In this document: positions 902 through 61,475 of the stretch, in pieces
Layout: every line of letters starts with the position of its first letter
How positions within the stretch are numbered: position 1 is the first letter of the stretch
Origin: an uncultured Clostridia bacterium
GTDB taxonomy: Bacteria; Bacillota; Clostridia; Christensenellales; CAG-917
DNA length: 63,431 nucleotides
Direction: 5' to 3'
Assembly: GCA_949283145.1 (NCBI GenBank)
Contig: CASDRL010000025.1
Location: 1-63,431 of the forward strand
Position numbers and translations under genes: made by a program
The notes under the pieces: generated by a model
Seen by the model: only the letters and a program-made list of their open reading frames with translations
The model's database searches: none
What the model was told of the DNA's origin: nothing

Positions 902-1379
902 CATATCCTCCAAAATTTTGTAATTTTATTCTATCACGGACAAATTTCGTATGCGGAAGGCAAAACGCGCGCCTTTTCGGCAAAAATGTCGAGTTTTGCA
1001 CATTCATGTCTATCCTTTCCGCAACGCAACGCAGACACACGACGCCGCGCGGGAAGACCGCGAGTTCTCGGCGATCCGCGCGACGTATTCCGTCGGCGAC
1101 AGAATAATACAAAACGCACGCGATGATTTCAACAATTATTTTCACACATTTTTCATTGTGCGTATATGTCGCGCTTTGCGCGCGGGCATGCAACGATATG
1201 TTGACAAACCGCGAGAAAACGGGTCAAAAAAACTGGTGAAATAAAATAGATGTCTCTGTGCGCCGCGGAAGAGGAAAAGAGAGGGGGCTCGCGTTGCGAG
1301 ACGGCGGCGGAGGAGAGCGGCTCGGAAGGGGCGGCGAAGGCAAAAAATCCTATTTATTCAAAAAAATTTGCCGGAACGG

Positions 1380-1408
1380 TTTACATATGGGCGTTGTATA
1401 AATATAAT
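1380..1408 (+). promoter_or_regulatory. Sigma-A-type promoter for the zinc-ribbon/proS unit
   Basis: TTTACA-N17-TATAAT, about 37 nt upstream of ATG 1445 with a GAGGAAG RBS. Confidence 0.55.
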
Positions 1409-1444
1409 AAATGAAAATTCCAAACATGACCGCGTGAGGAAGTA

Positions 1445-1933
1445 ATGGCAAAATATAAAAAATGCCCGCGCTGCGAGCTGAATTGGATCCCCGTCGAAGA
1501 AGAGCTTTGCGAAGTGTGCAAGGCGGAGCTTGGCAAAGCCAGCACCATCAGCCTCATTGAGGATGACGATGACGGGACGTACGAAGAAGAAAGGATCTGT
1601 CCCGTCTGCAAATCCAACTATCTTTCCGACGACGAAGACATTTGCGCGGAGTGCAGGGCGAAGCAGAAGGCGGAGAAGGCGGAGAAGTCCGAGGACGAAG
1701 ACGAGGGCTGGAAGGAGTTCGTCGAAGAGGATTCCGACACCGCTCTTGTCGGAGACGACGACTCGGAGATCTCCCTTTCCCTCTTGCAGGAAGAGGAAGA
1801 GCAGGACGCGGAGGAAGAGGAGGAGTCCTATTCCGACGAGCCCGACGATTTCGACGAATCCATAACCGATTTCGACGAAGACGATTACGACGAAGATGAA
1901 GACGAAGAGGACGGGGACGACGAGGACCTGTGA
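1445..1933 (+). CDS. Double zinc-ribbon protein with a very long polyacidic tail (unknown function)
   Basis: Two CxxC...CxxC units (CPRC..CEVC; CPVC..CAEC) followed by about 90 residues dominated by D/E. Has its own promoter and RBS. Confidence 0.75.
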   Translation: MAKYKKCPRCELNWIPVEEELCEVCKAELGKASTISLIEDDDDGTYEEERICPVCKSNYLSDDEDICAECRAKQKAEKAEKSEDEDEGWKEFVEEDSDTALVGDDDSEISLSLLQEEEEQDAEEEEESYSDEPDDFDESITDFDEDDYDEDEDEEDGDDEDL

Positions 1934-1949: not shown

Positions 1950-3386
1950 ATGCAAAAGGACGCCAAGTTCGTGAAAGAGATCGCGGACATGAAAGAAGAT
2001 TTTCCGCAGTGGTACACCGACGTCATCTTAAAAACGGAGCTGGTGGATTACGGTCCCGTCAAGGGCACGATGGTCATCCGCCCTTACGGCTACGAGATCT
2101 GGGAGCACATCCGGGATGAGCTTGACCGCCGCTTCAAGGCGACTGGGCACAAGAACGCCTATTTCCCGATGTTCATCCCCTTGAGCTATCTCATGAAGGA
2201 AGCGGAGCATGTCGAAGGGTTCGCGCCCGAGGTCGCGCTTGTTACGCATGTGGGCAATACGGAGCTTGAAGAAAAGCTCGTCGTGCGCCCGACTTCCGAG
2301 ACCATCATCTGCGACATGTACTCCAAGTGGGTGCAGAGCTACCGCGATCTGCCCCTTCTCATCAACCAGTGGGCGAACGTCGTCAGGTGGGAGAAGACCA
2401 CCCGTCCCTTCCTCAGGACGAGCGAGTTCCTCTGGCAGGAAGGGCACACCCTCCACTCCACCGAGGAAGAGGCGAGAGAGGAGACTCTCAGGATGCTCGA
2501 AGTCTACCGCGAGTTCATGCAGAACGTCCTCGCCATCGAGGTGCTCACGGGCAAAAAGACGGAGAAGGAGAAGTTCGCGGGTGCGGTGGACACCTACACT
2601 ATGGAAGCGATGATGCTGGACGGCAAGTCGCTGCAATCCGGCACATCTCATTATCTCGGCAAAAACTTTGCTTCCGCATTCGAGATCAAATATCTCGACC
2701 GTGACGGCAAACTCAAGAATCCTTATCAGACGAGCTGGGGCGTTTCCACCCGTCTCATCGGCGCGCTCATCATGGCGCACGGCGATCAGCGCGGGCTCAA
2801 ACTCCCGCCCCGCGTCGCGCCCGTGCAGACGGTGGTCATCCCCGTCGCGCAGCACAAAGAGGGCGTCATCGAGAAGGCGAGAGAGCTCGCCGACGCGCTC
2901 CGTAAGGCGGGCGTCCGCGTGGAAGTGGACGAAAGAGACCAGTCCGTCGGCTGGAAGTTCAACGAATGGGAGATGAAGGGTGCGCCCCTCCGCATCGAGA
3001 TCGGTCCCCGCGACATCGAGAACGGCGTCTGCGTCTTCTCCCGCCGCGACACGCACGAGAAGGGCACCATCGCCCTCGCCGATGTCGCCGAGAAAGTCCC
3101 CGCGCTCCTCGACGACATCCACGAGACCATGTATCGTCAGTCCGCGGATTTCCTGCATTCCCACATCGTCACCTGCCACAACATGGCAGAGTTCAACGTC
3201 GCCCTCGACAAACAATGCTTCGTCAAAGCCATGTGGTGCGGCTGCCGTGAATGTGAAGACGCCATCAAAGCCGAGACCGCAGCATCGGCGCGCGCCCTTC
3301 CCTTCGATCAAACTCCCGTCGGCGACACTTGTGTGTATTGCGGGAAACCTGCTAAGCACACCGTTGTCTTCGCCAAAAGCTACTGA
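1950..3386 (+). CDS. proS: Prolyl-tRNA synthetase, archaeal/eukaryote-like type
   Basis: FPQWYTDVILKTELVDYGPVKGTMVIRPYGYEIWE and class II motifs. C-terminal Zn-binding domain ending in ...FAKSY. GGAGGAG RBS before ATG 1950 (the ORF-track start 1896 is an over-extension). Confidence 0.95.
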   Translation: MQKDAKFVKEIADMKEDFPQWYTDVILKTELVDYGPVKGTMVIRPYGYEIWEHIRDELDRRFKATGHKNAYFPMFIPLSYLMKEAEHVEGFAPEVALVTHVGNTELEEKLVVRPTSETIICDMYSKWVQSYRDLPLLINQWANVVRWEKTTRPFLRTSEFLWQEGHTLHSTEEEAREETLRMLEVYREFMQNVLAIEVLTGKKTEKEKFAGAVDTYTMEAMMLDGKSLQSGTSHYLGKNFASAFEIKYLDRDGKLKNPYQTSWGVSTRLIGALIMAHGDQRGLKLPPRVAPVQTVVIPVAQHKEGVIEKARELADALRKAGVRVEVDERDQSVGWKFNEWEMKGAPLRIEIGPRDIENGVCVFSRRDTHEKGTIALADVAEKVPALLDDIHETMYRQSADFLHSHIVTCHNMAEFNVALDKQCFVKAMWCGCRECEDAIKAETAASARALPFDQTPVGDTCVYCGKPAKHTVVFAKSY

Positions 3387-3505
3387 GGGCACTATTCGGC
3401 GAATAACATCGTCAAAGTCCCCGTCGTGGATGCTCACGTACGTTTCTGTACGTTCCGCCTCCCGACGGGGCTTTTCCTTGTTCTTCATCCGAATATTGCC
3501 CTCAG
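3383..3505. repeat. M-family long hairpin repeat, copy M1
   Basis: About 123-nt imperfect palindrome CTGAGGGCACTATTCGG...CCGAATATTGCCCTCAG with apical ACGTAC-loop-GTACGT. Its first bases contain the proS stop codon. Confidence 0.7.
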
Positions 3506-3507
3506 TC

Positions 3508-3756
3508 CTGACGCCGCCATTTGGCGCAGAACTTTGTCAGCACCCCTTTTTCGGCTCGTTACGTACGGCATAGTACGCGCCTACGTCGCAATCCGCGCTA
3601 AACTGCAAGAAAGCCGCTCAAAAAAGCGGCTTTCCTTTTGCTTATGCACGGTTGCTCCTTTTCCCCACAAAGTGTCCTCGCTGCGCTGTGGTACTTTGTG
3701 GGGACCCCGATAGGCGGGGGTGCTTTCGCGCTCTGCATCCAAATGACGCCGCTCAG
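3508..3756. repeat. M-family copy M2, interrupted by other inserted hairpin repeats
   Basis: Matching arms CTGACGCCGCCATTTGG... (3508) and ...CCAAATGACGCCGCTCAG (3756) are separated by about 170 nt. The insert contains a K-family hairpin and a terminator-like hairpin (AAAGCCGCTCAAAAAAGCGGCTTT). Confidence 0.6.
3663..3703. repeat. K-family hairpin, copy K1
   Basis: CCCCACAAAGT-N19-ACTTTGTGGGG. A near-identical copy lies at 31525-31564 and a related one inside L copy 50507-51070. Confidence 0.6.
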
Positions 3757-3767
3757 CGAATAAGTTT

Positions 3768-3884
3768 GGAGTGGGCGAATTGCTGTGTCAAGCGCCTGCG
3801 GTCTGAACAGTCACGTACGCCCAAGTACGCTCCTGTCCATCCCGCAGGCGCTTTCCTTGCACTTCATCCGAATATTGCCCTCAG
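3768..3884. repeat. M-family copy M3 (degenerate left arm)
   Basis: The right arm GCGCTTTCCTTGCACTTCATCCGAATATTGCCCTCAG and the apical CGTAC-GCCCAA-GTACG match the family. Confidence 0.55.
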
Positions 3885-3900
3885 CTAATAAGTTCAGAGC

Positions 3901-4331
3901 GGGTGTATTAGAGCGCGATGTTTCTTTTTTCGGAGACGGGATTACGCGCCGCTCACCCAAGCGTTCACAGGCGGTGCAACCGCCTCTTGAACGCCGCGGC
4001 GCGTAAAGTGAGTGCCGAGCAACGCCGTAAACTCAAATAGGCACGGGCTTTAAGTGCGAACCGAAGGTCCAGCGATTGTTGCGCCATGCGCCAATCGCGT
4101 CGCGCCGAATTCCTCCGCCCGTGCCGGGTTTTCGGTAAGTGCAGTTCTCCGCTTGGTTATGTTGGTGCGATTACCAAAAAATTTTGGTAAGGTTCAAAAG
4201 TAAGTCCCGCATGATGCGAGGACGATACTTTTTCGGACACGGGGGAGGAAAGCCCGAAGGGAAGGAGGGGGAATTCTTACTCACCCCCGAGACGAGCAGC
4301 TTATTCGTAGCGTGTTTGAACACGACGAACA
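3901..4331 (-). ncRNA. L-element copy E (candidate mobile structured RNA)
   Basis: Homologous over its length to 9808-10247. Retains all helices with compensatory changes (GGCGTTCA/TGAACGCT middle tier, AGGCGG/CCGCCT apex). Confidence 0.5.
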
Positions 4332-4405
4332 CCTCGAGCGAGCGTTGTTCGGCGCGATCCCTTGACAAAAGAAGGCGCCTAAAAGAGCCATAAACAAATA
4401 GCACA

Positions 4406-8773: not shown

Positions 8774-8896
8774 AGCGCGCTATTTTGCGTGATACTGCGT
8801 CAAAGCCGCGTCCCCGACCGCTCACGTACGAGAAGTACGCCACGCGTCCGGGAGACGCGGCTTTTCCTTGTCTGACGCTAAAATATCGCGCTTTAG
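8770..8896. repeat. M-family copy M4
   Basis: CTAAAGCGCGCTATTTTGCG...CGCTAAAATATCGCGCTTTAG with apical CGTAC-GAGAA-GTACG. Its first bases contain the rpsR TAA stop. Confidence 0.7.
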
Positions 8897-8900
8897 CAAG

Positions 8901-9026
8901 CTGAACGCCGCCATTCGGCGCATAACTTTGTCAGCGCCCTTGTCGTGGATGCTCACGTACGTCTGTGTACGCTCCGCCTCCCGACAAGGGCGCTTTCGCG
9001 TTCTGCATCCAAATGGCGGCGTTTAG
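8901..9026. repeat. M-family copy M6
   Basis: CTGAACGCCGCCATTCGG...CCAAATGGCGGCGTTTAG, with inner stem GCGCCCTTGTCG/CGACAAGGGCGC and apical CGTAC-loop-GTACG. Confidence 0.7.
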
Positions 9027-9045
9027 TAAATTAGCGTTTGTGCGG

Positions 9046-9434
9046 GCGTGTTTGAGTACGATGGCTCTTTTTCGGAGACGGGATTACGCGCCGCTCAGCC
9101 AAACTTGCACAGCAGGCGCTTGCGCCTGCTCTTGCAAGTCGCGGCGCGCTAAATGAGTGCCGAGCGCCGACGAAACATTAAATAGGCACGGGCGTCGTGC
9201 GCGAGCGCCGAATTCCTCCGCCCGTGCCGGGTTCTCGGTGAGTTCTGTTCGCCGCTCGATTATGTTAGTGCGAGACACAAACTTTTTTCAAGAGGCGGAC
9301 GGTAAGTCCCGCATTTTAGGAGGACGATACTATAATCGGACACGGGGGAGGAAAGCCCGAAGGGAAGGAGGGAGAATTCTAACTCACCCCCGGGACGAAC
9401 AGCTTATTCGGAGCGTCCCCGAACACGACGAACA
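9046..9434 (-). ncRNA. L-element copy D (short variant)
   Basis: Reverse complement of the 9808-10247 architecture. Lacks the 42-nt inner insert. Apex AGCAGGCG/CGCCTGCT forms a perfect stem. Confidence 0.5.
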
Positions 9435-9481
9435 GACTATCCGGCGTGTATTTGAATGCGATGAACGCTTGATCGCAGAAC

Positions 9482-9523: not shown

Positions 9524-9658
9524 TCACTTGCAGTTTTTGCAGTTTCTGGCGTCGGAAGCGTTCTTGGAGGCTTTCGCCTGCTTGCCCGCTTTCGCCTTGG
9601 AGCTTTCGCTCGCTGCGGAAGCCTGTCTGCCGTTTGCTCCGGATTTGGTGTTTTCCAT
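9524..9658 (-). CDS. Small basic Ser/Ala/Lys-rich protein, 44 aa (possible forespore small protein)
   Basis: AAGGAG-N5-ATG. Translation MENTKSGANGRQASAASESSKAKAGKQAKASKNASDARNCKNCK. Own promoter and terminator. Below the ORF-track length cutoff. Confidence 0.55.
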   Translation of the reverse strand: MENTKSGANGRQASAASESSKAKAGKQAKASKNASDARNCKNCK

Positions 9659-9709
9659 GTTCACTCCTTTGGGGGATCGCCCCGTGTTCAGACTTTTGCC
9701 TGTCGAGGG

Positions 9710-9739: not shown

Positions 9740-9807
9740 TTCGCTCTGCGGGGGAATTGTTTTCCCACGCCACTTTTCGCCGCCAAGTGTTCATCTCGGT
9801 TCAGAGT

Positions 9808-10247
9808 GTTCGTCGTGCTCAAGCACACTCCGAACAGGCTTTTCGTCTCGCGGGTGAGTTAGAATTTCCCCCTCCTTCCCTTCGGGCTTTCCTCCCCCGT
9901 GTCCGATTAGAGTATCGTCCTCCTAAAATGCGGGACTTACCGTCCGCCTTTTGAAAAAAGTTTGTGTCTCGCACTAACATAATCGAGCGGCGAACAGTAC
10001 TCACTGAGAACCCGGCACGGGCGGAGGAATTCGGCGCGACGCGATTGGCGCGGAGCGCAGCAATCGCTGGACCTTCGGTTCGCGCACTACGCCCGTGCCT
10101 ACTTAATGTTCCGTCGGCGCTCGGCACTCACTTAGCGCGCCGCGACTTGCAAGCGTGGGCGAAAATTCGCCCACGGTGCAAGTTTGGCTGAGCGGCGCGT
10201 AATTCCGTCTCCGAAAAAAGAAACATCGCATTCGGGGGCGCTCGCCC
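9808..10247 (+). ncRNA. L-element copy A (reference copy of the candidate structured RNA)
   Basis: 5' GGGTGAGT (9852) pairs with ACTCACTT (10126). Helix GGCACGGGCG...CGCCCGTGCC encloses a C(UUCG)G hairpin. The 3' hairpin has three tiers: CGCGCCGC-GACTTGCA-CGTGGGCG/CGCCCACG-TGCAAGTT-GCGGCGCG. Hairpin-bearing direct repeats at both ends. Confidence 0.55.
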
Positions 10248-10251
10248 TTGC

Positions 10252-10406
10252 TTTAATAAAAGTGCGCCGAGTGTTGCGGGCGAAGCCGCAACGCTCGGCG
10301 CATTCTTATAAAAAACAAGGGGTCGAGGGGCATAATGCCCCTCGCGAGGTCAAGGGGCAGAGCCCCTTGCACACTCCCACCGGGATGCAGGGGCAGAGCC
10401 CCTGCC
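10252..10406. repeat. H-family hairpin cluster H2
   Basis: AT-flanked hairpin GCGCCGAGTGTTGCGG-GCGAA-GCCGCAACGCTCGGCGC (10264-10301), followed by GAGGGGCATAATGCCCCTC, AAGGGGCAGAGCCCCTT and GCAGGGGCAGAGCCCCTGC. Confidence 0.7.
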
Positions 10407-12821: not shown

Positions 12822-13078
12822 GCGCAGGGGCGCCGCCCCTGCACCCCGACGGGGATGTCCAAGGGACTCTGCCCCTTGACCCCGCGAGGGACATTATGCC
12901 CCTCGACCCCAGACTTTAATATAATATTGCGCCGAGCGTTGCGGCTTCGCCCGCAACACTCGGCGCACTTTTATAATAAAAAAGTACGGGGGTGTGGGGG
13001 TATAATACCCCCACAGGGAGCGCGAGGGTGTAACACCCTCGCAAGGGGGCGTGGGGAAATAATTCCCCCACGCGAAAA
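12822..13078. repeat. H-family hairpin cluster H3 with a central bidirectional-terminator-like hairpin
   Basis: Seven tandem GC hairpins. The central one, GCGCCGAGCGTTGCGG-CTTCG-CCCGCAACACTCGGCGC (12929-12966), is flanked by A/T runs and lies between convergent genes. Confidence 0.7.
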
Positions 13079-13080
13079 GA

Positions 13081-14403
13081 TCAATCCGCGAAGGCGTTTT
13101 CGACTTCGGAGCGGGAGAGGGTCTTGGTCCTAAGGAAGGCGGCGCGCAGGCGCGCGATGATGCCTGCGTGGTTTTGAACAATGGTTTTCGCGCGGGCGTA
13201 CTGTTCCTCGAGGATCTTCTCGCGCAGGCGTTCGGTGTCGTCGAGTTTTTGCTCGGAGATCTCGATGTAGTAATAGGTGTCGGTGTTGAGATATCTCCAG
13301 CCGAAGAGTCCGTTCGAGAAGGCGCTGTTGAGGAGTTTCGTTGCGGAATGGAGGTCTCCCTCAAGGTCGGTGAAAGCTCCGCCGAGCAACATTTCTTCCG
13401 CCGCCATACCGCCGAGCAACACCGCCACTTTGTCGAGCAGGGCAGAGCGGTCGTCCACGGTGATGATCAGGCTCTCATCCTCGTCCTCATCGTCGTCGTC
13501 CTCGTCCGGAGCGGAAAAGAGGGAGCGAATGGGCGCGTTGGGCGAGACTTCGGACTCGAAACGCATGGACACTTCGTCATAGGTGCGTCTCAATTCGCGC
13601 GAGACGACGAGGTGTCCGAGCATATGCGTTGCGACGAGCAGCATATCGCGGTCGGAACTTTCGCGGTTGATGTCGCAATGCAGGATCTTGTTCGCCTGTT
13701 CCAGCAATGTCTCGTCGGTGAGGGGAGTGTCCGCGAATATACTTTCCGCCACGGCTTCGTTGACCATCGTTTTGATGTCCGCGCCGTTCAGCCCGGGGAT
13801 CTGTTCCGCAATAGCGGCGCAGTCTATGCCCGTCGGGACGGGGTCGAGCTCGTCGATGTAGTGTTGCAGGATGGCGGCGCGCCCCGCTTTGTCCGGTGCG
13901 TAGAGGCAGATGTGCTTGTCCATCCTGCCGGACCGTAGCAGCGCGGGGTCGAGATCGTCCTTGTCCGAGGACGCGCCCACCACCAGTACCCCTTCACTGC
14001 CGTCCATGCCGTCGATGAGCTTGAGCAGGGCGGAGAGGTTGCGTTTGGTCAGATCCGTCCTGTAATAGCAGTCGCCTACAAAGGTGTTGAGCTCGTCGAT
14101 GAAGACGACGGACGGAGCGACCTTTTTCGCGCGGGCGAACACCGCTTTCAGTTTGCGGATGCCTTTGTGATCGCCGAGTTCCGAGCCGTCCACATAGAAG
14201 AAGGGCGCGTCAAGTTCGGTCGCCAGCACCTTGGCGAACAGCGTCTTGCCTATGCCCGGTTCGCCCGAAAGGATGAGCCCTTTCGGGAGGCGCGCGCCTC
14301 TTTCGCCGTACTCGTCGTAACGGGCGAAAATGTCGATTATTTTCGCAAGTTCCTGTTTTTCGGTATCGTAGCCCGCTATGCTGTCAAGATAAAATTTTTC
14401 CAT
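13081..14403 (-). CDS. Soluble FtsH-like AAA+ ATPase with a degenerate M41 peptidase domain (YjoB-like)
   Basis: Walker A GEPGIGKT, Walker B VVFIDE, DPALLRSGRMDK. The M41-like C-terminus has HEXXH replaced by HMLGH. No TM segments. AAGGAGG RBS. Confidence 0.85.
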   Translation of the reverse strand: MEKFYLDSIAGYDTEKQELAKIIDIFARYDEYGERGARLPKGLILSGEPGIGKTLFAKVLATELDAPFFYVDGSELGDHKGIRKLKAVFARAKKVAPSVVFIDELNTFVGDCYYRTDLTKRNLSALLKLIDGMDGSEGVLVVGASSDKDDLDPALLRSGRMDKHICLYAPDKAGRAAILQHYIDELDPVPTGIDCAAIAEQIPGLNGADIKTMVNEAVAESIFADTPLTDETLLEQANKILHCDINRESSDRDMLLVATHMLGHLVVSRELRRTYDEVSMRFESEVSPNAPIRSLFSAPDEDDDDEDEDESLIITVDDRSALLDKVAVLLGGMAAEEMLLGGAFTDLEGDLHSATKLLNSAFSNGLFGWRYLNTDTYYYIEISEQKLDDTERLREKILEEQYARAKTIVQNHAGIIARLRAAFLRTKTLSRSEVENAFAD

Positions 14404-14737
14404 AGTAGTATCCTCCTTTATTGCGTGATCTCCACCGTTTCGATGACATCACGCCGCAGGAAAGACACCGACAGTCCCGGGGCGCATTAGACAAAAATAA
14501 AAGCGAGTCCCTCCGACCCGCTTCCGACGTCCGAGTGATGAAGAAGATTTAGATTTAGTGCAAGATGTTCGTCATTTTTCTTTCTCCCGATGAGGGGACA
14601 ATAGCACAGACCCTACCCGAAACGCAAGCGAATTTGCAAAAAAATCTCGTCGACGACCGCCCCGAACAAGCGCAAAACACGGCGTCTGCCGTGTTTTGTG
14701 ACATAAAAATATTTTTTCTTGCGCGCATGAGCACAGC

Positions 14738-15173
14738 GGTCTCGTCGTGCTCAAAGACGCTCTATCAAGCTGTTCGTCTCGCGGGTGAGTTAGAATTTCC
14801 CCCTCCTTCCCTTCGGGCTTTCCTCCCCCGTGTCCGAAAAAGTTCAGTCCTCCTAAAATGCGGAACTTACTTTCCACCTCTTGAAAAAATTTGGGTCTCG
14901 CACTTACATAATCGAGCGGCGAACAGTACTCACTGAGAACCCGGCACGGGCGGAGGAATTCGGCGCGACGCGATTGGCGCGGAGCGCAGCAATCGCTGGA
15001 CCTTCGGTTCGCGCACTACGCCCGTGCCTACTTAATGTTTCGTCGGCGCTCGGCACTCACTTAGCGCGCCGCGACTTGCAAGAGCAGGCGCAAGCGCCCG
15101 CTGTGCAAGTTTGGCTGAGCGGCGCGTAATTCCGTCTCTGTAAAAGAAACGGCGCACTCGGGGACGCTCCGAA
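14738..15173 (+). ncRNA. L-element copy B
   Basis: One mismatch to copy A across about 170 nt of core, but a different apex (AGCAGGCG..CGCCCGCT). Confidence 0.5.
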
Positions 15174-15262
15174 AAAGTGATCGGCGCACTTTTATAATAA
15201 AAAAGCACGGGGTGTGGGGGAATAATTCCCCCACAGGGAGCGCAATGGTCACCCCACTTCCC
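15174..15262. repeat. H-family cluster H4 (truncated)
   Basis: Only the right half of the central hairpin (GATCGGCGCACTTTTATAAT) is present, followed by GTGGGGGAATAATTCCCCCAC. Confidence 0.55.
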
Positions 15263-15826: not shown

Positions 15827-15903
15827 TGGTGGGGTTGAATAGACTCGAACTATCGACCTCACGCTTATCAGGCGTGTGCTCTAACCAACTGAGCTACAAC
15901 CCC
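15827..15903 (-). tRNA. tRNA-Ile (anticodon GAU)
   Basis: GGGGTTGTAGCTCAGTTGGTTAGAGCACACGCCTGATAAGCGTGAGGTCGATAGTTCGAGTCTATTCAACCCCACCA. Cloverleaf with encoded CCA. Confidence 0.95.
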
Positions 15904-15925
15904 TAGTTCCCCTTTCGGGGGCTTG

Positions 15926-16001
15926 TGGTGGAGATGCACGGATTCGAACCGAGGACCTCTTGAATGCAAATCAAGCGCTCTACCAACTGAGCTACACCCC
16001 C
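15926..16001 (-). tRNA. tRNA-Ala (anticodon UGC)
   Basis: GGGGGTGTAGCTCAGTTGGTAGAGCGCTTGATTTGCATTCAAGAGGTCCTCGGTTCGAATCCGTGCATCTCCACCA. G3:U70 identity pair present. Confidence 0.95.
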
Positions 16002-17249: not shown

Positions 17250-17278
17250 TTGCGCGGATCGCCTGCGGATGTTATAAT
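17250..17278 (+). promoter_or_regulatory. Promoter of the B12-riboswitch unit
   Basis: TTGCGC-N17-TATAAT. Confidence 0.5.
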
Positions 17279-17282
17279 CTCA

Positions 17283-17445
17283 TTGCCTCGGGTGCGGCGA
17301 AAGCCGATGATCGGGAAGTCGGGTGAGAATCCCGCACAGCCCCCGCTACTGTAAGGTTGAAACGGATCCCGCCATTCCTGCCCCGGCAGGGAGAAGGCGC
17401 CGCGGCATATGCCGACCGAAGTCAGGAGACCGGCCCGAGAGTGAA
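17283..17445 (+). promoter_or_regulatory. Cobalamin riboswitch
   Basis: GGGAAGTCGGGTGAGAATCCCGCACAGCCCCCGCTACTGTAA (B12 box) plus the downstream AGTCAGGAGACCGGC. CCTTCC upstream of the GGGAGG RBS can sequester it. Confidence 0.85.
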
Positions 17446-17521
17446 TAAAGCAGTTGTTTCGGCGGGAGACGACGGCGTTTTTTTGCGCTTGCCTTCCGCG
17501 GAAAGAACGGGAGGTTTTTTC

Positions 17522-31370: not shown

Positions 31371-31452
31371 CGGCGCGCGTTTTTTGGCGCACAACTTTGT
31401 CAGCACCCTTGTCGTGGATGCTCACGTACGTTTATGTACGCTCCGGCGTCAC
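31367..31452. repeat. M-family copy M7 (left half only)
   Basis: CTGACGGCGCGCG...AACTTTGTCAGCACCCTTGTCG + TGGATGCTCACGTACGTTTATGTACGCTCC. Its first bases contain the TetR TGA stop. Confidence 0.6.
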
Positions 31453-31524
31453 AGCGGATGATAATTAACAGGCACCGCCGCATTTGTGGCGGTGCCTTGT
31501 TTTTCATATCCGCTGTTCCTTATA

Positions 31525-31685: not shown

Positions 31686-31846
31686 TTTTATTATAAAAGT
31701 GCGCCGAGTGTTGCGGGCGGAGCCGTAACACTCGGCGTAATATTATATAAAAGTGTGGGGTCGAGGGGCATATGCCCCTCGCGGGGTCAAGGGGCGGCGC
31801 CCCTCGGAAACTCCCGCATGAGAGCAGGGGCGGCGCCCCTGCCGGG
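31686..31846. repeat. H-family hairpin cluster H5
   Basis: Central hairpin 31701-31737 flanked by A/T runs, then GAGGGGCATATGCCCCTC, AAGGGGCGGCGCCCCT and GCAGGGGCGGCGCCCCTGC. Lies between convergent genes. Confidence 0.7.
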
Positions 31847-50365: not shown

Positions 50366-50489
50366 CTGACGGCGCTATTTCGCGAATTGCTTTGTCAGAG
50401 CGCTTGTTCCGGCTGCTCACGTACGTTTATGTACGCTCCGCCTCCCGACAAGGGCGCTTTCGCGTTCTGCATCCAAATGACGCCGTCAG
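50366..50489. repeat. M-family copy M8
   Basis: CTGACGGCGCTATTTCG...CCAAATGACGCCGTCAG with the canonical core TGCTCACGTACGTTTATGTACGCTCCGCCTCC. Confidence 0.7.
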
Positions 50490-50506
50490 GCGAACGGGCA
50501 GTTTAG

Positions 50507-51070
50507 GCGAGCGTGCTTGAGCACGACGATTCTCATTCGGAGACGGAATAACGAAAACTCAGAGCGTGACGTCGCTTGATACGACGTTATCTTTTTCGGA
50601 GTGGAGCCGCTCACCAAGCGCTCACAGGGCGGAGCCCTCTTGAGCGCCGCGGCGACCGGGTGAGTGCCGAGGGCTGGATGGTAGTGCGTCGGCAATGCGC
50701 CATTCGGGGTCCCCGCCAAAAGTATTTTCGGTGGGGTTTTCTATCGCGAAGCGGGCGCATTGCAAGCGGCATAACATGGCGGCGCCGCGGAGGCGCCGTC
50801 CTCGGACGCCCTAATGCCCGAGCGCCGAAGGTGCCCCCTAAAACCGTGGGGCCCCGCAGGGGGGAATGGTTTTTGGGGGAACCTGCAGGAGGGGGCTCAA
50901 CAACACTTCAATGTCAGAGGACGGCAGCCCGTTTCAAACACGGGGGAGGAAAGCCCGAATGGGGCTCCCCGCAAAATGCATGCATTTTGTGGGGTCCCCG
51001 GGTTGGAGGGGGAATTCTAACTCCCCCCGAGACGAACAGCTTATTCGAAGCGTCCCCGAACACGACGCTC
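50507..51070 (-). ncRNA. L-element copy F (long, divergent variant)
   Basis: Shares the 5' module (GGGGGAGTTAGAATTCCCCCTCC...TTCGGGCTTTCCTCCCCCGTG), the 3' module (CTCGGCACTCACCC...GGCGCTCA-apex-TGAGCGCT...) and the terminal hairpin repeats. The central domain is replaced and expanded. Confidence 0.45.
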
Positions 51071-51316
51071 ACTCCGAGCGAGTATTATTTGGTGCCCCGC
51101 CGAGTTCTCGGCGGGGAAAACAGTCCGCCGAACAAGGTTCGGCGGGTCATAAAGCAATTAAGGCGCGGGGCGGGGAACCGCTCCGCGCGTGTGTTTATTA
51201 TGTAGTTTTCCGTCGTTGTCAAGGGCGCGAAAATTTTAGCGGGCTTTGCCCGCGAAATTTTTCGGCGCAATTCCTTGACAAAACGAGTGTTGGAACGAGT
51301 TACAAACAAATAGTAT

Positions 51317-52325: not shown

Positions 52326-52508
52326 ATTTGCAGGGGCGCCGCCCCTGCACCCCGGGGCGGGGATGTCATCCCCGCACCCCTTATTTTTATATAATATTGC
52401 GCCGAGTGTTGCGGGCAAAGCCGCAACACTCGGCGCACTTTTTATAAAAAAGTATGGGAGCGCGAGGGTGTAACACCCTCGCAAGGGGGAAAATAATTCC
52501 CCCGCAGG
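52326..52508. repeat. H-family hairpin cluster H7
   Basis: GCAGGGGCGCCGCCCCTGC, GGGGATGTCATCCCC, central hairpin 52399-52436 and the GGGAGCGCGAGGG...CCCTCGC unit. Confidence 0.7.
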
Positions 52509-56861: not shown

Positions 56862-56964
56862 GACCTTATCGTAAACGGCAGTGTGATCACACTGCGCGGT
56901 GTTTATCTCTCTTTTTCGGCACAGTGAACAGCCAATTCGGCTGTTCACTGTGCTTTTAAGACAT

Positions 56965-57385
56965 GCATCGTGTTCAAGCACGCCCCCGAATAGGCTTCTC
57001 GTCTCGAGGGTGAGTTAGAATCCCCCCCTCCTTCCCTTCGGGCTTTCCTCCCCCGTGTCCGATTGGAGTATTGTCCTCCTAAAATGCGGGATACACTTTC
57101 CGCCTCTTGAAAAAAGTTTGTGTCTCGCACTTACATAATCGAGCGGCGAACAGTACCCACTGAGAACCCGGCACGGGCGGAGGAATTCGGCGCTCGCGCA
57201 CGACGCCCGTGCCTACTTAATGTTTCGTCGGCGCTCGGCACTCACTTAGCGCGCCGCGACTTGCAAGAGCGAGCGCAAGCGCCCGCTGTGCAAGTTTGGC
57301 TGAGCGGCGCGTGGTTCCATCTTCGAAAGAGAGCCGTCGTGCTCCAAGACGCTTCGAACAGGTGCTCGTCGTGCTTTAGGGACAC
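56965..57385 (+). ncRNA. L-element copy C (short variant)
   Basis: Same architecture as copy A but without the 42-nt inner insert. The 3' end re-initiates a truncated second unit. Confidence 0.5.
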
Positions 57386-57520
57386 ACGCTAGTGCTTTAT
57401 ATAAAATTGCGCCGAAGGTTGCGGCTTTGCCCGCAACCTTCGGCGCATTCTTATTATAAAAATATGGGAGCGCGAGGGTGTAACACCCTCGCAAGGGGCG
57501 TGGGGGGGATCCCCCACAGG
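57386..57520. repeat. H-family hairpin cluster H8
   Basis: Central hairpin GCGCCGAAGGTTGCGG-CTTTG-CCCGCAACCTTCGGCGC (57409-57446) with compensatory changes relative to the other copies, followed by the GGGAGCGCGAGGG unit and GTGGGGGGGATCCCCCAC. Confidence 0.7.
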
Positions 57521-58873: not shown

Positions 58874-61339
58874 TCACTCGGCGGAGCGATACAGCAAACT
58901 GCCTGTTCGCAGCAACTCGGCGGCAGCAGAAGGATCGGAGAACATCTCTTGTGTCAGTTCGATTTCCGTATCATCAGTAGACCAGCCTTCCGTCACCTCG
59001 AATTTAGCCGAGGTCAGGCTGTCGCACCCTAAGAATGCGTGGTTGCCTATGTATGTCACACTGTCGGGGATGGAGACGGAAGTCAAACTCGTGCATTGAT
59101 AGAAAGCATAATGCCCTATGCTTGTCACGCTGTCAGGAATAGTGACGGAGACCAAATTGCTGCAAGAACGGAAGGCAAAAGAGCCTATGCTTGTCACGCC
59201 GGCCGGGATGGTGACGGAGGTGATGTCCGTCTGATAAGCAAATGCATTAGAAGGAATTGCAGTCACGCCGTAGGAGACGGTGATCGCTCCTTCCATTTTA
59301 TTTCCGCTTATATACAACGTCCGTCCGCTTGACATCACGCTGCCATGCCAGTCCTTTTCAAGCCAACTCGTCATATCACCGGTGTAGTAGATTGAGGTCA
59401 GATTACTGCAGCCGTCGAAGGCACCCAACCTTATGCTCGTCACGCTGTCCGGGATGGTGATCGAGGTCAAACCGGTGCAATCCGCAAAGGCACCATTCCC
59501 TATGCTCGTCACGCCGTCCGGGATGGTGACAGAGGTCAAATTGCTGCAATCCGCGAAAGCATAAGTTCCAATGCTCTCCACGCCGTTTCCGGTGGAGACC
59601 GAGGTCAAGCGGATACAATTACGGAAGGCGGAATTTCCAATGTTTGCAGTGCCGGGGATACTCACATTTTCAAGTGAAGCGCACCCATTGAACGCATGAT
59701 CCTTTATGCTTGATACGCTATCCGGAATCGTGAGGTCGGTGACGGGCTCGCCGTCAATGAACAGGCTGCCGCCGTAATAACACGGGTTGCTGTCGGAGGA
59801 ACCGAAATCTATGTTAAGCCAAGAGTTTATATCGGTGATGTGAACCTCTTTGATGGCTTTGTCGAACTGGAACGCATAATCACCGATTGTGGTAACTTTG
59901 CTTCCGATAGTGACAGGGTTTAGAGAATAGCAACAAATGAATGCACCTAGTCCAACGGTCTCCGCATCCGCGGCGATGGTCGCGGTGCTGATTGTGCTGA
60001 ATGCGAATAGTCCTTGCCCTACCTCGGTCACACCCTCCGGAATGACGAGGTCGGTGACGACTTCGCCTCCCACGACCAGGTCATGCTGCGGAAGAATTGG
60101 AGGCTTCATGGTGTTAAATCCCGTGATTTCGACGTTCAGCCAATCTTCCAATGTATCCACGCAAAAACGGGTGAGGTCAGGACACTCCTCTATTGCCCCG
60201 ACATGCAGCGTCTGGAGCGTGTTCGGGAGAGTGAGGGAGCATAGTGCCGTGCAGCCCGACAAAGCACCGTCCGCAAGTTCCGTCCCCGCGGTGAGGACGA
60301 GGTTTTCAAGCTTGCTTTGCGGGATGCTGTCTATCGCGCAGAGGGGCAAGGTGGCACTCGTGATGTCGGACGCGCCGTCGAAGGCGGTGCTCGCGATGTT
60401 TGCCGTGCCGTTTTGCTCGATGCTGTTCGGGATGGTCACCGCCTTAAGAGATGTACAGCCGGAGAAAGCGTTTTCCCCTATGCGCTCCACGCCCTCCGCG
60501 ATGGTGACGGAGATGATGCCGGTGTTGTTTTGAAAGGCTCCGTCCGCGATCTCGGTGACGGGTTTGCCGAGGTATGCCGAGGGAATGACCACCGTTTGCA
60601 TGTCGCCCGCAACACCCGTGACGGAGAGACTTCCGTCGGAGAGAGGCTCATAGCTGAGAGTGCTTGTCGTGAGCGCGGGCGTCAGATCCACGCGGGTAAA
60701 GGTGCCGTCCGAGAACTCTATCACAAGGAAAGTGCCGTCCACGCGGATCCCGGTGATGCCGAGGCCGGGCTTGCCTTGTTCGCCTTGTTCACCTTGCTCA
60801 CCCTTGTCGCCTTGGTCTCCTTTGTCGCCCTGAGGACCTTGCTCGCCCGTGACGACGCCGAGGTTCTGCGTCCTGCCGTCGGAGTAGGAGAGGATGAGTT
60901 CACCCTTATCGTTGATCTCGGCACCCGTGACACTCACGCCCTGTATGCCTTGTTCGCCCTTGTCGCCTTGGTCTCCCTTGTCTCCTTGGGGGCCTTGCGC
61001 GCCTGTGACGACGCCGAGGTTTTGCGTACTGCCGTCGGAGAAGGAGAGGATGAGTTCGCCCTTTTCGTTGATCTCGGCACCGGTGACGCTCACGCCCTGT
61101 TCGCCCTGTATGCCTTGCTCACCCTGTTCACCCTGTTCGCCCTGCGGGCCTTGCGCGCCCGTGATCACGCCGAGGTTCTGTGCCGAACCGTCCGAGTAGA
61201 TGAGGACAAGCTCGCCCGCATCGTTGATGATGGCGTTCGTCACCGTGGGGGTCTGCTCTTGGTTGCACGCGGCGAGCAGACACGCTCCGAGAGCGAGGAT
61301 GCACACCAATGCCATAACAAACAAAACTTTTTTCTTCAT
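58874..61339 (-). CDS. Surface lipoprotein with collagen-like GXY repeats and BspA-type leucine-rich repeats
   Basis: Lipobox LLAAC. Three modules of (INxxGELxLxYSDGxxQNLGVVTG + (GXY)7-11). Then about 20 LRR_5-like units (IPDSVTSIGxxAFxxCxxLTSVTI). Confidence 0.85.
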   Translation of the reverse strand: MKKKVLFVMALVCILALGACLLAACNQEQTPTVTNAIINDAGELVLIYSDGSAQNLGVITGAQGPQGEQGEQGEQGIQGEQGVSVTGAEINEKGELILSFSDGSTQNLGVVTGAQGPQGDKGDQGDKGEQGIQGVSVTGAEINDKGELILSYSDGRTQNLGVVTGEQGPQGDKGDQGDKGEQGEQGEQGKPGLGITGIRVDGTFLVIEFSDGTFTRVDLTPALTTSTLSYEPLSDGSLSVTGVAGDMQTVVIPSAYLGKPVTEIADGAFQNNTGIISVTIAEGVERIGENAFSGCTSLKAVTIPNSIEQNGTANIASTAFDGASDITSATLPLCAIDSIPQSKLENLVLTAGTELADGALSGCTALCSLTLPNTLQTLHVGAIEECPDLTRFCVDTLEDWLNVEITGFNTMKPPILPQHDLVVGGEVVTDLVIPEGVTEVGQGLFAFSTISTATIAADAETVGLGAFICCYSLNPVTIGSKVTTIGDYAFQFDKAIKEVHITDINSWLNIDFGSSDSNPCYYGGSLFIDGEPVTDLTIPDSVSSIKDHAFNGCASLENVSIPGTANIGNSAFRNCIRLTSVSTGNGVESIGTYAFADCSNLTSVTIPDGVTSIGNGAFADCTGLTSITIPDSVTSIRLGAFDGCSNLTSIYYTGDMTSWLEKDWHGSVMSSGRTLYISGNKMEGAITVSYGVTAIPSNAFAYQTDITSVTIPAGVTSIGSFAFRSCSNLVSVTIPDSVTSIGHYAFYQCTSLTSVSIPDSVTYIGNHAFLGCDSLTSAKFEVTEGWSTDDTEIELTQEMFSDPSAAAELLRTGSLLYRSAE

Positions 61340-61475
61340 ACCCGACTCCGTTTGCGCGCGGATGCGCGTCATCATCAGAGCATTATATCACGGATGTGTA
61401 TCAATAATTGATTTTAAGAAAAAAAATGACGAACCGGGCATGATTTTTTTTGGCGGGGGAACCGTGTCATCCGCG

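Follow-up and report, generated by a model that had tools for sequence, protein, structure and literature searches.

Six copies of the L repeat in the window

The window analyzed here, a stretch of 63,431 nt from contig CASDRL010000025.1, has the gene content of an ordinary chromosome (ProRS, rpsF-ssb-rpsR, UDG, AlaRS, a shikimate operon, Fe-hydrogenase, AdhE, Rex, pst-phoU and a BspA-type surface protein), and six copies of a repeat family that we call L lie between its genes. Pfam searches with 30 open reading frames (ORFs) of the window returned housekeeping families only, with no mobile-element gene in the window. A sequence-only reading had proposed six intergenic copies of a structured element unaccompanied by a cognate protein gene. 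Repeat finding, pairwise alignment and an nhmmer profile built from five copies recovered all six at essentially the positions given there, and nhmmer and junction comparisons widened their limits. An invariant 20-mer, TCGGGCTTTCCTCCCCCGTG, occurred 6 times with at most 3 mismatches, against 0 times in 100 shuffles. In a wider sample of about 1.15 Mb of DNA, nhmmer found 149 copies longer than 200 nt; all six window copies, and 148 of the 149, are free of overlap with a predicted gene. The comparison loci or strains of this sample are written as L followed by three digits (for example L033).

Copy A (3856-4373, minus strand; nhmmer and alignments) occupies the convergent spacer between the ProRS and metallo-beta-lactamase genes; its 3′ hairpin is of the GGCGTTCA/TGAACGCT variant and it includes an optional 42-nt insert. 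Copy B (about 9030-9476, minus strand; alignment and nhmmer, as for copies C, D and F) lies between the 3′ ends of rpsR and of a 44-aa ORF and is without this insert. Copy C (about 9800-10253, plus strand) is the one that the earlier finding was named after, and its coordinates are used below for the parts of the element. Copy D (about 14716-15179, plus strand) has its 3′ end fused to half of a hairpin of a second repeat family, H, and copy F (56934-57411, plus strand), which is without the insert, is followed by an H hairpin. Copy E (50461-51106, minus strand), pieced together from split nhmmer hits and alignment, belongs to a divergent subfamily with inserts: a palindrome is nested in its 5′ loop and its middle domain differs, and the same subtype was found at L061, L014, L069 and L169.

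Overall L measures 300-500 nt: its core takes up about 290-390 nt, and on either side of this lie short direct hairpin units that vary in number. These are u1 (about 32 nt, CGTCGTGCTCAAAGACGCTCGCTCAAAGTGTG), which contains a small hairpin, and u2 (about 26 nt, CGTTAGACCGTCTCCGAAAGAGTGTA). In copy C the unit search placed a 5′ terminal u1 (CGTCGTGCTCAAGCACACTCCGAACAGGCTTTT) at 9811-9843 (plus strand) and, at 10205-10253 (plus strand), a u2 (CCGTCTCCGAAAAAA) followed by a degenerate u1-like hairpin. The core is often trailed by one to three tandem u2+u1 units, and the L leader is itself u2-like. The claim that similar hairpin-bearing direct repeats lie at both ends of the element was confirmed, as u1-type units were found on the same strand at either end, variable in number and degenerate. 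The ends of L are not sharp, consisting of variable numbers of degenerate 26-32 nt direct units. Matches to u1 or u2 numbered 248 in the 1.15 Mb, only about 27 of them away from an L core and many of these chance-like, and the units are therefore part of L. A candidate for a well-defined 5′ terminus, TTTTCGCCGCCAAGCGTTCATCTCGG, was rejected: it is the left arm of a small palindromic repeat that is also found without L. In the window's species group it precedes many L copies.

Subfamilies of L mix modules: the leader has two forms and most helices exist in two to three versions, and there is also an E-type with a different middle domain and a short form without the 3′ hairpin. Tandem copies occur, sometimes of different subfamilies, as do truncated and nested ones. 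The optional 42-nt insert, a branched hairpin with a UUCG loop at 10038-10079 (plus strand), is present in copies A, C and D and not in B or F. Its precise absence from the orthologous copy C of L162 (about 98% identical) shows that it behaves as a small indel module in its own right; in L040 the inner hairpin is different and has a UUCG cap. Copy C of L161 has a gap like that of L162, though not placed to single-base precision. Loops of copy E (about 50950-51000) and of copies at L067, L010, L061 and L014 contain a nested small palindrome, GGGGACCCCACAAAATGCATGCATTTTGCGGGGAGCCCC, which at L009, L011 and L018 lies in the 3′ hairpin bulge.

A multi-helix fold kept on the element strand

Compensatory changes preserve a fold of several helices on the element strand of L. 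A nested model of 58 pairs was applied to an alignment of 50 copies (A1), with slid models and shuffles as controls. In the model 94.7% of cells were paired, compared with 38-53% in the slid controls; 18 pairs (slid controls, 2-5) and 142 cells (slid controls, 2-20) were changed on both sides. The covariation score was 0.152 against 0.082 in shuffles, a value reached by 0 of 500. The covariation seen among the window copies, which had been marked beforehand as needing a larger set, persisted on 50 copies. At least seven conserved helices were recognized, some of them long-range and spanning more than 100 nt, and the core as a whole shows no dyad symmetry. Some helices or hairpins are swapped in their entirety for different sequences that pair too, and there are sequence blocks that are invariant across species whose proteins differ by 10-30%.

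The strand specificity that had been proposed for this structure also held. G.U pairs made up 216 of the 2526 cells, and three of them were invariant in the 50 copies; the other strand would have A.C mismatches, and the structure therefore belongs to the element strand. Relative to shuffled controls, the fold energy of copy C gave z = -5.0 on the element strand versus -2.5 on the opposite strand. The loops include UNCG (UUCG/UACG) and GNRA (GCAA) types, with UUCG changed to UACG in one subfamily and GCAA-type loops capping several hairpins; predicted loops of these kinds fit RNA better than DNA. The fold is under selection on one strand, most likely as RNA.

Four helices have the best support: helix Y, helix H4, a 4-bp helix and the 3′ three-tier hairpin. 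Helix Y, UUCCUCC-CCCGUG(CCG) / (CGG)CACGGG-C-GGAGGAA, was 99.2% paired with 5 pairs changed on both sides. Its 5′ strand (UUCCUCC and CCCGUG) lies at 9889-9901 (plus strand) and pairs with the 3′ strand at 10016-10029 (plus strand), which consists of CACGGG, a bulged C and GGAGGAA. A near-invariant block, CCCCCTCCTTCCCTTCGGGCTTTCCTCCCCCGTG (9868-9901, plus strand), was read from the invariant columns of A1 and contains two CCUCC motifs and a UUCG loop (UACG in the variant subfamily). Helix H4 (9929-9973, plus strand), formed by UGCGGGA at 9929-9935 and UCUCGCA at 9967-9973, closes a variable A/U-rich hairpin; one of its pairs is GC in 34 copies and AU in 16, and one G.U pair is invariant. A 4-bp helix occurs as GCGC/GCGC, GCAA/UUGC or GGGC/GCCC.

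The three helices named by the sequence-only reading fared differently on the larger alignment. The 3′ three-tier hairpin (10136-10199, plus strand; CGCGCCGC / GACUUGCA / apex / UGCAAGUU / UGGCUGA bulge / GCGGCGCG) was fully upheld by alignment and covariation: its middle tier was 100% paired, with an invariant closing G.U pair and three pairs covarying between two haplotypes (AU22/GC13, UA22/GC13 and UA18/GC17), and its apex covaries. It is missing from the short subfamily (15 of the 50 copies), which has GCCGCCCUGCGGC instead. The 10-bp helix GGCACGGGCG/CGCCCGTGCC is present in some subfamilies, but across the family it was only 75% paired; the short subfamily lacks it, and the variant one has an entirely different pair of strands, GUCGCUCGUG/CACGAGCGAC. 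Its 5′ strand (10014-10023) overlaps the 3′ strand of the better-conserved helix Y (UUCCUCCCCCGUG / CACGGG(C)GGAGGAA), and the 10-bp helix crosses the 4-bp helix. The proposed pairing of GGGTGAGT with ACTCACTT could not be maintained: it forms in the six window copies, yet only 57% of cells were paired across the 50, no different from the shuffled or slid controls, and one of its strands is lacking in two subfamilies. Two CGGCAC copies are possible partners of one GUGCCG segment, each co-varying with it, which suggests that L may adopt alternative conformations.

Turnover, gene context and range of L

L copies are gained, lost, inverted or swapped at orthologous sites between close strains. 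The dynamic behavior suspected for the element is thus supported by filled, empty or replaced orthologous sites, with copies present, absent, inverted or replaced between strains of 95-97% identity. Roughly 670 contig blocks carry the rpsR allele; ten syntenic 16-20 kb rpsR loci hold roughly 3 to 6 L copies or fragments each. The C site is filled in L161, L162, L169 and L172 and empty in L033 and L163-L168; L171 has only a repeat of another family, Q, at this site, and synteny breaks there in L170. L033 is also without copy D, having a u1+u2 pair and no core at that site. Copy B is missing from L161 and L162 (about 97% identical to the window), which carry about 250 nt of other repeats instead. 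After the gene for an Fe-dependent repressor, L lies in the plus orientation in 3 loci and in the minus orientation in 2, with none in 4 loci and the window. A 52-nt stretch of the window corresponds in L027 to 1.6 kb of repeats, one of them an L copy. The A site is filled in 10 of 10 syntenic loci and in L066. At such sites L was interchanged with repeat families M, H, D9, K and Q.

The cleanest comparison is that of L082 (filled) with L053 (empty; GTTTGTG-TTTTTTTTC-AGCC), whose flanks are 92-97% identical and which shows no target duplication. Across the 3-4 junctions that could be resolved we found no flanking motif in common and no target-site duplication, and the left flanks differ (TTGTG, GTTCT and CCACT). 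L172 has a possible 7-8 nt CGCGCTCA repeat at both junctions, seen at this one locus and not generalized. A further candidate pair, L054 and L001, was rejected because both loci come from one metagenome-assembled genome (MAG) and are thus paralogous repeat contexts, not alleles.

Genes beside the L sites also vary. An FtsH-like AAA/M41 gene (13081-14403) is present or absent by strain, and L164-L166 have an acyltransferase gene inserted between rpsR and the 44-aa ORF. In most syntenic loci (L163-L168 and L171) L hits lie between spo0A and the ProRS operon, split, and E-type-like where both parts exist; the corresponding interval of the window (913-1445) has no L.

L accumulates at the 3′ ends of genes and avoids promoter regions. 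The upstream gene was co-oriented with L in 86 cases and not in 42, the downstream gene was opposed to L in 83 cases versus 21, and convergent spacers held 41 copies compared with 4 in divergent ones. We rejected the reading of L as a 5′ leader or riboswitch of the downstream gene, because that gene is usually opposite in orientation. L was also rejected as a coding sequence, by eye only, 1-nt indels being frequent and no ORF being common to the copies. A terminator-like hairpin was found within 120 nt upstream of 29 of 109 copies and downstream of 14, and a consensus scan upstream of L copies gave no convincing conserved promoter. A TTGACA... promoter upstream of some copies proved by eye to be the 3′ arm of an M-repeat terminator hairpin. 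A promoter-like TTGAAA-18-TAACAT lies in sense orientation inside copies C (9951-9980, plus strand) and B (9291-9262, minus strand) and is not conserved in other subfamilies.

L copies neither contain nor border on a protein gene of their own, in agreement with the sequence-only reading. Clustering of the ORFs that flank first 70 and later 160 loci (about 1.15 Mb) showed no recurrent neighbor beyond housekeeping genes; the clusters found in several contexts were ABC ATPases, a P-type ATPase, a histidine kinase, SpoIIE, GlmS, IspDF and similar. A tblastn search of the window and the 160 loci (about 1.15 Mb) with IS200 TnpA, using an approximate query sequence, found nothing.

A 20-mer scan of species-representative genomes gave at least 70 loci, and among the matches listed all lay in 7 MAGs (Candidatus Limadaptatus stercoravium, Ca. 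L. stercorigallinarum, HGM11451 and four BRZ_* 'uncultured Clostridia' bins). There are dozens of L copies per small genome, often at contig ends in fragmented assemblies. A degenerate 28-base pattern matched 90 metagenome stretches, mostly from human gut, and collections of viral contigs, phages and plasmids gave no match to L. NCBI taxonomy places Candidatus Limadaptatus in the Clostridia, Eubacteriales incertae sedis, and the literature that names it is taxonomic or survey work. That L could not be placed in a known RNA family is in keeping with Rfam 15, in which no family reaches its gathering score on L; at gathering thresholds the whole window matched only a cobalamin riboswitch and two tRNAs. 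Relaxed searches with copy C, copy E and two other subfamilies gave chance-level hits only, and models of group I and group II introns and of ribozymes did not hit L even at E up to 10. A resemblance to conserved regions of RNase P (GAGAACCCGGC, ACGGGCGGAGGAA) was put down to chance, because no RNase P model hits. L is thus an undescribed structured element, restricted by lineage to a small group of gut Clostridia.

Nature of the L repeat and its neighboring repeats

Whatever its mechanism proves to be, L is real and not ordinary as a large structured interspersed bacterial repeat. The reading that we favor, at roughly even confidence, is of a lineage-specific non-coding interspersed repeat family that is mobilized in trans or spread by recombination and whose fold probably acts as RNA; as part of this best reading, L is the largest of the modules that make up a mosaic system of intergenic repeats in gut Clostridia resembling Candidatus Limadaptatus. 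L would be unable to move alone, and would be copied by an enzyme encoded elsewhere or through recombination or gene conversion via the flanking short repeats. The predicted fold would act as RNA, not as DNA, in a putative transcript, for which L may depend on read-through of the co-oriented upstream gene or may have its own weak promoter. CCUCC and GGAGG may be so strictly conserved because a conserved partner binds there, be it a protein or the ribosome and Shine-Dalgarno (SD) system, and this putative partner might be needed for the persistence of L or for a function of the host. A more far-reaching version, to which we assign a low probability, is that L is a new class of large structured RNA working with a trans-encoded protein, as a guide or scaffold for a nuclease or recombinase or as a ribozyme; the RNA-protein pair would copy L into terminator-proximal sites and the bistable GUGCCG/CGGCAC core would be a conformational switch. 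HEARO offers a precedent, having been known as a multi-copy structured RNA of unknown function before it was shown to be the guide RNA of IscB nucleases.

Several observations count against the favored reading. No transposase, recombinase or reverse transcriptase was identified in the sampled DNA, in which the flank ORFs were not scanned for reverse transcriptase domains specifically, and mobility is therefore deduced from presence and absence only. Most of the filled/empty comparisons are module replacements and not clean insertions, a pattern that suits recombination at least as well as it suits transposition, and exchange by recombination between the many flanking repeats accounts for the module swaps no less well than transposition. 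No genome examined is without the A-site copy, and a host function could explain this in place of selfish spread. The lack of a conserved promoter, together with the terminator-like hairpins that more than a quarter of copies (the 29 of 109) sit just downstream of, means that transcription of L may be weak. Lastly, much of the covariation stems from a few old haplotypes common to many copies, so that independent events are fewer than the cell counts suggest.

The invariance of sequence blocks across species with 10-30% protein divergence and the retention of the A-site copy in all 11 syntenic genomes would also suit a host-owned multigene family of structured RNAs (for example a CCUCC/GGAGG sponge or decoy), spread by duplication and kept for a cellular function, with mobility incidental. 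The fold maintained by compensatory changes, a one-strand secondary structure as in a functional non-coding RNA gene, and the ability of the anti-SD-like and SD-like motifs of L to pair with each other point the same way. Such a family would not be expected to have dozens of members in each small genome that are quickly gained, lost and inverted between strains, to include tandem, truncated and nested copies, to lack a conserved promoter or to have no fixed gene neighborhood, and we regard this explanation as unlikely, while keeping it in view. ROOL, GOLLD, OLE and raiA resemble L in their hundreds of nucleotides, their many helices and their occurrence in Bacillota, but these usually have one or a few gene copies, often located in prophages or close to tRNAs, whereas L has dozens of copies per genome with fast turnover and matches none of their Rfam models. 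A DNA-level or single-stranded DNA-level repeat of the REP/BIME type, in which hairpins serve as binding sites, recombination substrates, terminators or insulators and RNA is a by-product, is quite improbable in our view. L does share with the REPs and BIMEs of enterobacteria and their RAYT transposases an extragenic position, high copy number, a preference for gene 3′ ends and convergent spacers, variation between strains, the lack of an internal gene, and a mosaic arrangement with several other palindromic repeat families whose modules replace one another between strains. However, invariant G.U pairs, UNCG and GNRA loops and helices spanning more than 100 nt are unexpected for a function in duplex DNA, the core has no overall dyad symmetry, and the opposite strand folds far less well (the z of -2.5 against -5.0). 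REPs are palindromes of 20-40 nt, unlike the asymmetric core of L (290-390 nt) with its long-range helices, strand-specific G.U pairs and tetraloops, and the approximate TnpA probe detected no RAYT-like Y1 gene in the DNA sampled. The elements bcr1 and the larger bcr of the Bacillus cereus group, ERIC/IRU and Correia are mostly of 100-160 nt with terminal inverted repeats and target duplications. They are like L in being lineage-restricted, intergenic and strain-variable, and a conserved RNA fold is predicted for them too; L is 2-3 times their size, is without inverted ends, has at least seven conserved helices and showed no duplication in its one clean junction. A classical MITE differs similarly, since the ends of L are direct and not inverted and the clean pair L082/L053 is without a duplication.

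The sequence-only reading had itself likened L to IS200/IS605-type elements and their non-autonomous derivatives; on this model L would be a PATE, moved as single-stranded DNA by a TnpA encoded elsewhere, with the core as an omega scaffold for TnpB or IscB in trans. The end hairpins of L are similar units on the same strand, there are no inverted terminal repeats, and L082/L053 has no target duplication. PATEs that encode omega RNAs for use in trans have been documented (Meers et al. preprint, doi 10.1101/2023.03.14.532601) and provide a precedent. HEARO RNA (RF02033; the IscB omega RNA) and PATEs are, like L, multi-copy, structured and supported by covariation, with one-strand end hairpins and many copies without an adjacent ORF. 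The link is nonetheless not supported, because the flanks contain no recurrent gene or TnpA (no IS200-type hit in about 1.15 Mb with the approximate probe) and the junctions have neither a common motif nor a duplication. No recurrent ORF of TnpB or IscB size was seen, HEARO and all other Rfam models were negative, and the fuzzy ends with tandem units in variable number are a misfit with a fixed scaffold-guide junction. Typical omega scaffolds are also smaller than the 290-390 nt core of L. We therefore hold this explanation to be very unlikely, although the IS200/IS605 model remains a fair analogy for L. Least probable of all would be an ORF-less, reduced intron-like or ribozyme-based RNA that inserts beside terminator hairpins and is copied through RNA. 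The complex, conserved, strand-specific structure, the co-oriented upstream genes (86 versus 42), the position of about a quarter of copies just after a terminator-like hairpin and the lack of target duplication are all compatible with it. Against it stand the lack of any hit to group I or II intron or ribozyme models at E up to 10, the intergenic position of the copies, the absence by eye of a domain-V-like hairpin, and the absence of a recurrent ORF in the sampled flanks, where no search was aimed at reverse transcriptase domains. Group II introns are, moreover, longer than L.

If the favored reading of a trans-mobilized or recombination-spread family is true, L is an undescribed large structured RNA-like family with more than 100 sampled copies in bacteria of human and chicken gut. 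Even as a mere selfish or structural repeat it marks hypervariable intergenic cassettes between strains of 95-97% identity, breaks assemblies, and offers a natural data set on the upkeep of a complex fold in a proliferating repeat.

The other repeat families have recognizable forms of their own. The M repeat is an imperfect hairpin of about 120 nt with arms ACGCCGCCATTTGGATGCAG... / ...GACAAAGTT..AATGGCGGCGT, found in the window at 3386-3581, 8889-9034, 31374-31491 and 50369-50498; it often lies directly 3′ of L, as at copies A, B and E and at several loci in other genomes. The H repeat, an AT-flanked near-perfect palindrome (GCGCCGAG.GTTGCGG...CCGCAAC.CTCGGCGC), resembles a bidirectional terminator and lies at 10254-10315, 12916-12981, 31688-31760, 52384-52448 and 57403-57472. 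An H hairpin had been described after each plus-oriented L copy, which is so for C and F, but D keeps only half a hairpin. H abuts the 3′ end of L at these two copies and in L163, L165 and L172, and it was within 160 nt downstream in only 5 of 63 copies. The K repeat (...GCGCCGAAAAATTTCGCGGGCAA.GCCCGCTAAAATTTTCGCGCCCTTGACAACGACGG...) lies upstream of copy E (about 51110-51260) and replaces copy B in two strains (L161, 4960-5220). The Q repeat is a small palindrome (TTTTCGCCGCCAAGCGTTCATCTCGGC...GCGATGAAGCGGCGAC) seen in 18 distinct contexts in the loci; its left half, at 9774-9799 in the window, precedes copy C and many other L copies, and the whole palindrome stands alone at the C site of L171.

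Among the remaining features of the window, the cobalamin riboswitch (97 bits) lies at 17273-17452 (plus strand) and the two tRNA genes at 15830-16001 (minus strand). The 44-aa ORF next to copy B (9529-9663, minus strand) is Lys/Ser-rich (MENTKSGANGRQ...NCKNCK), gave no Pfam hit, has an SD sequence and a terminator, and is among the genes called at 8 of the 10 syntenic rpsR loci. The gene at 58874-61375 (minus strand), which contains tandem repeats of 69 nt and 156 nt, encodes a BspA-type protein of 833 aa with leucine-rich repeats and a collagen-like stretch.

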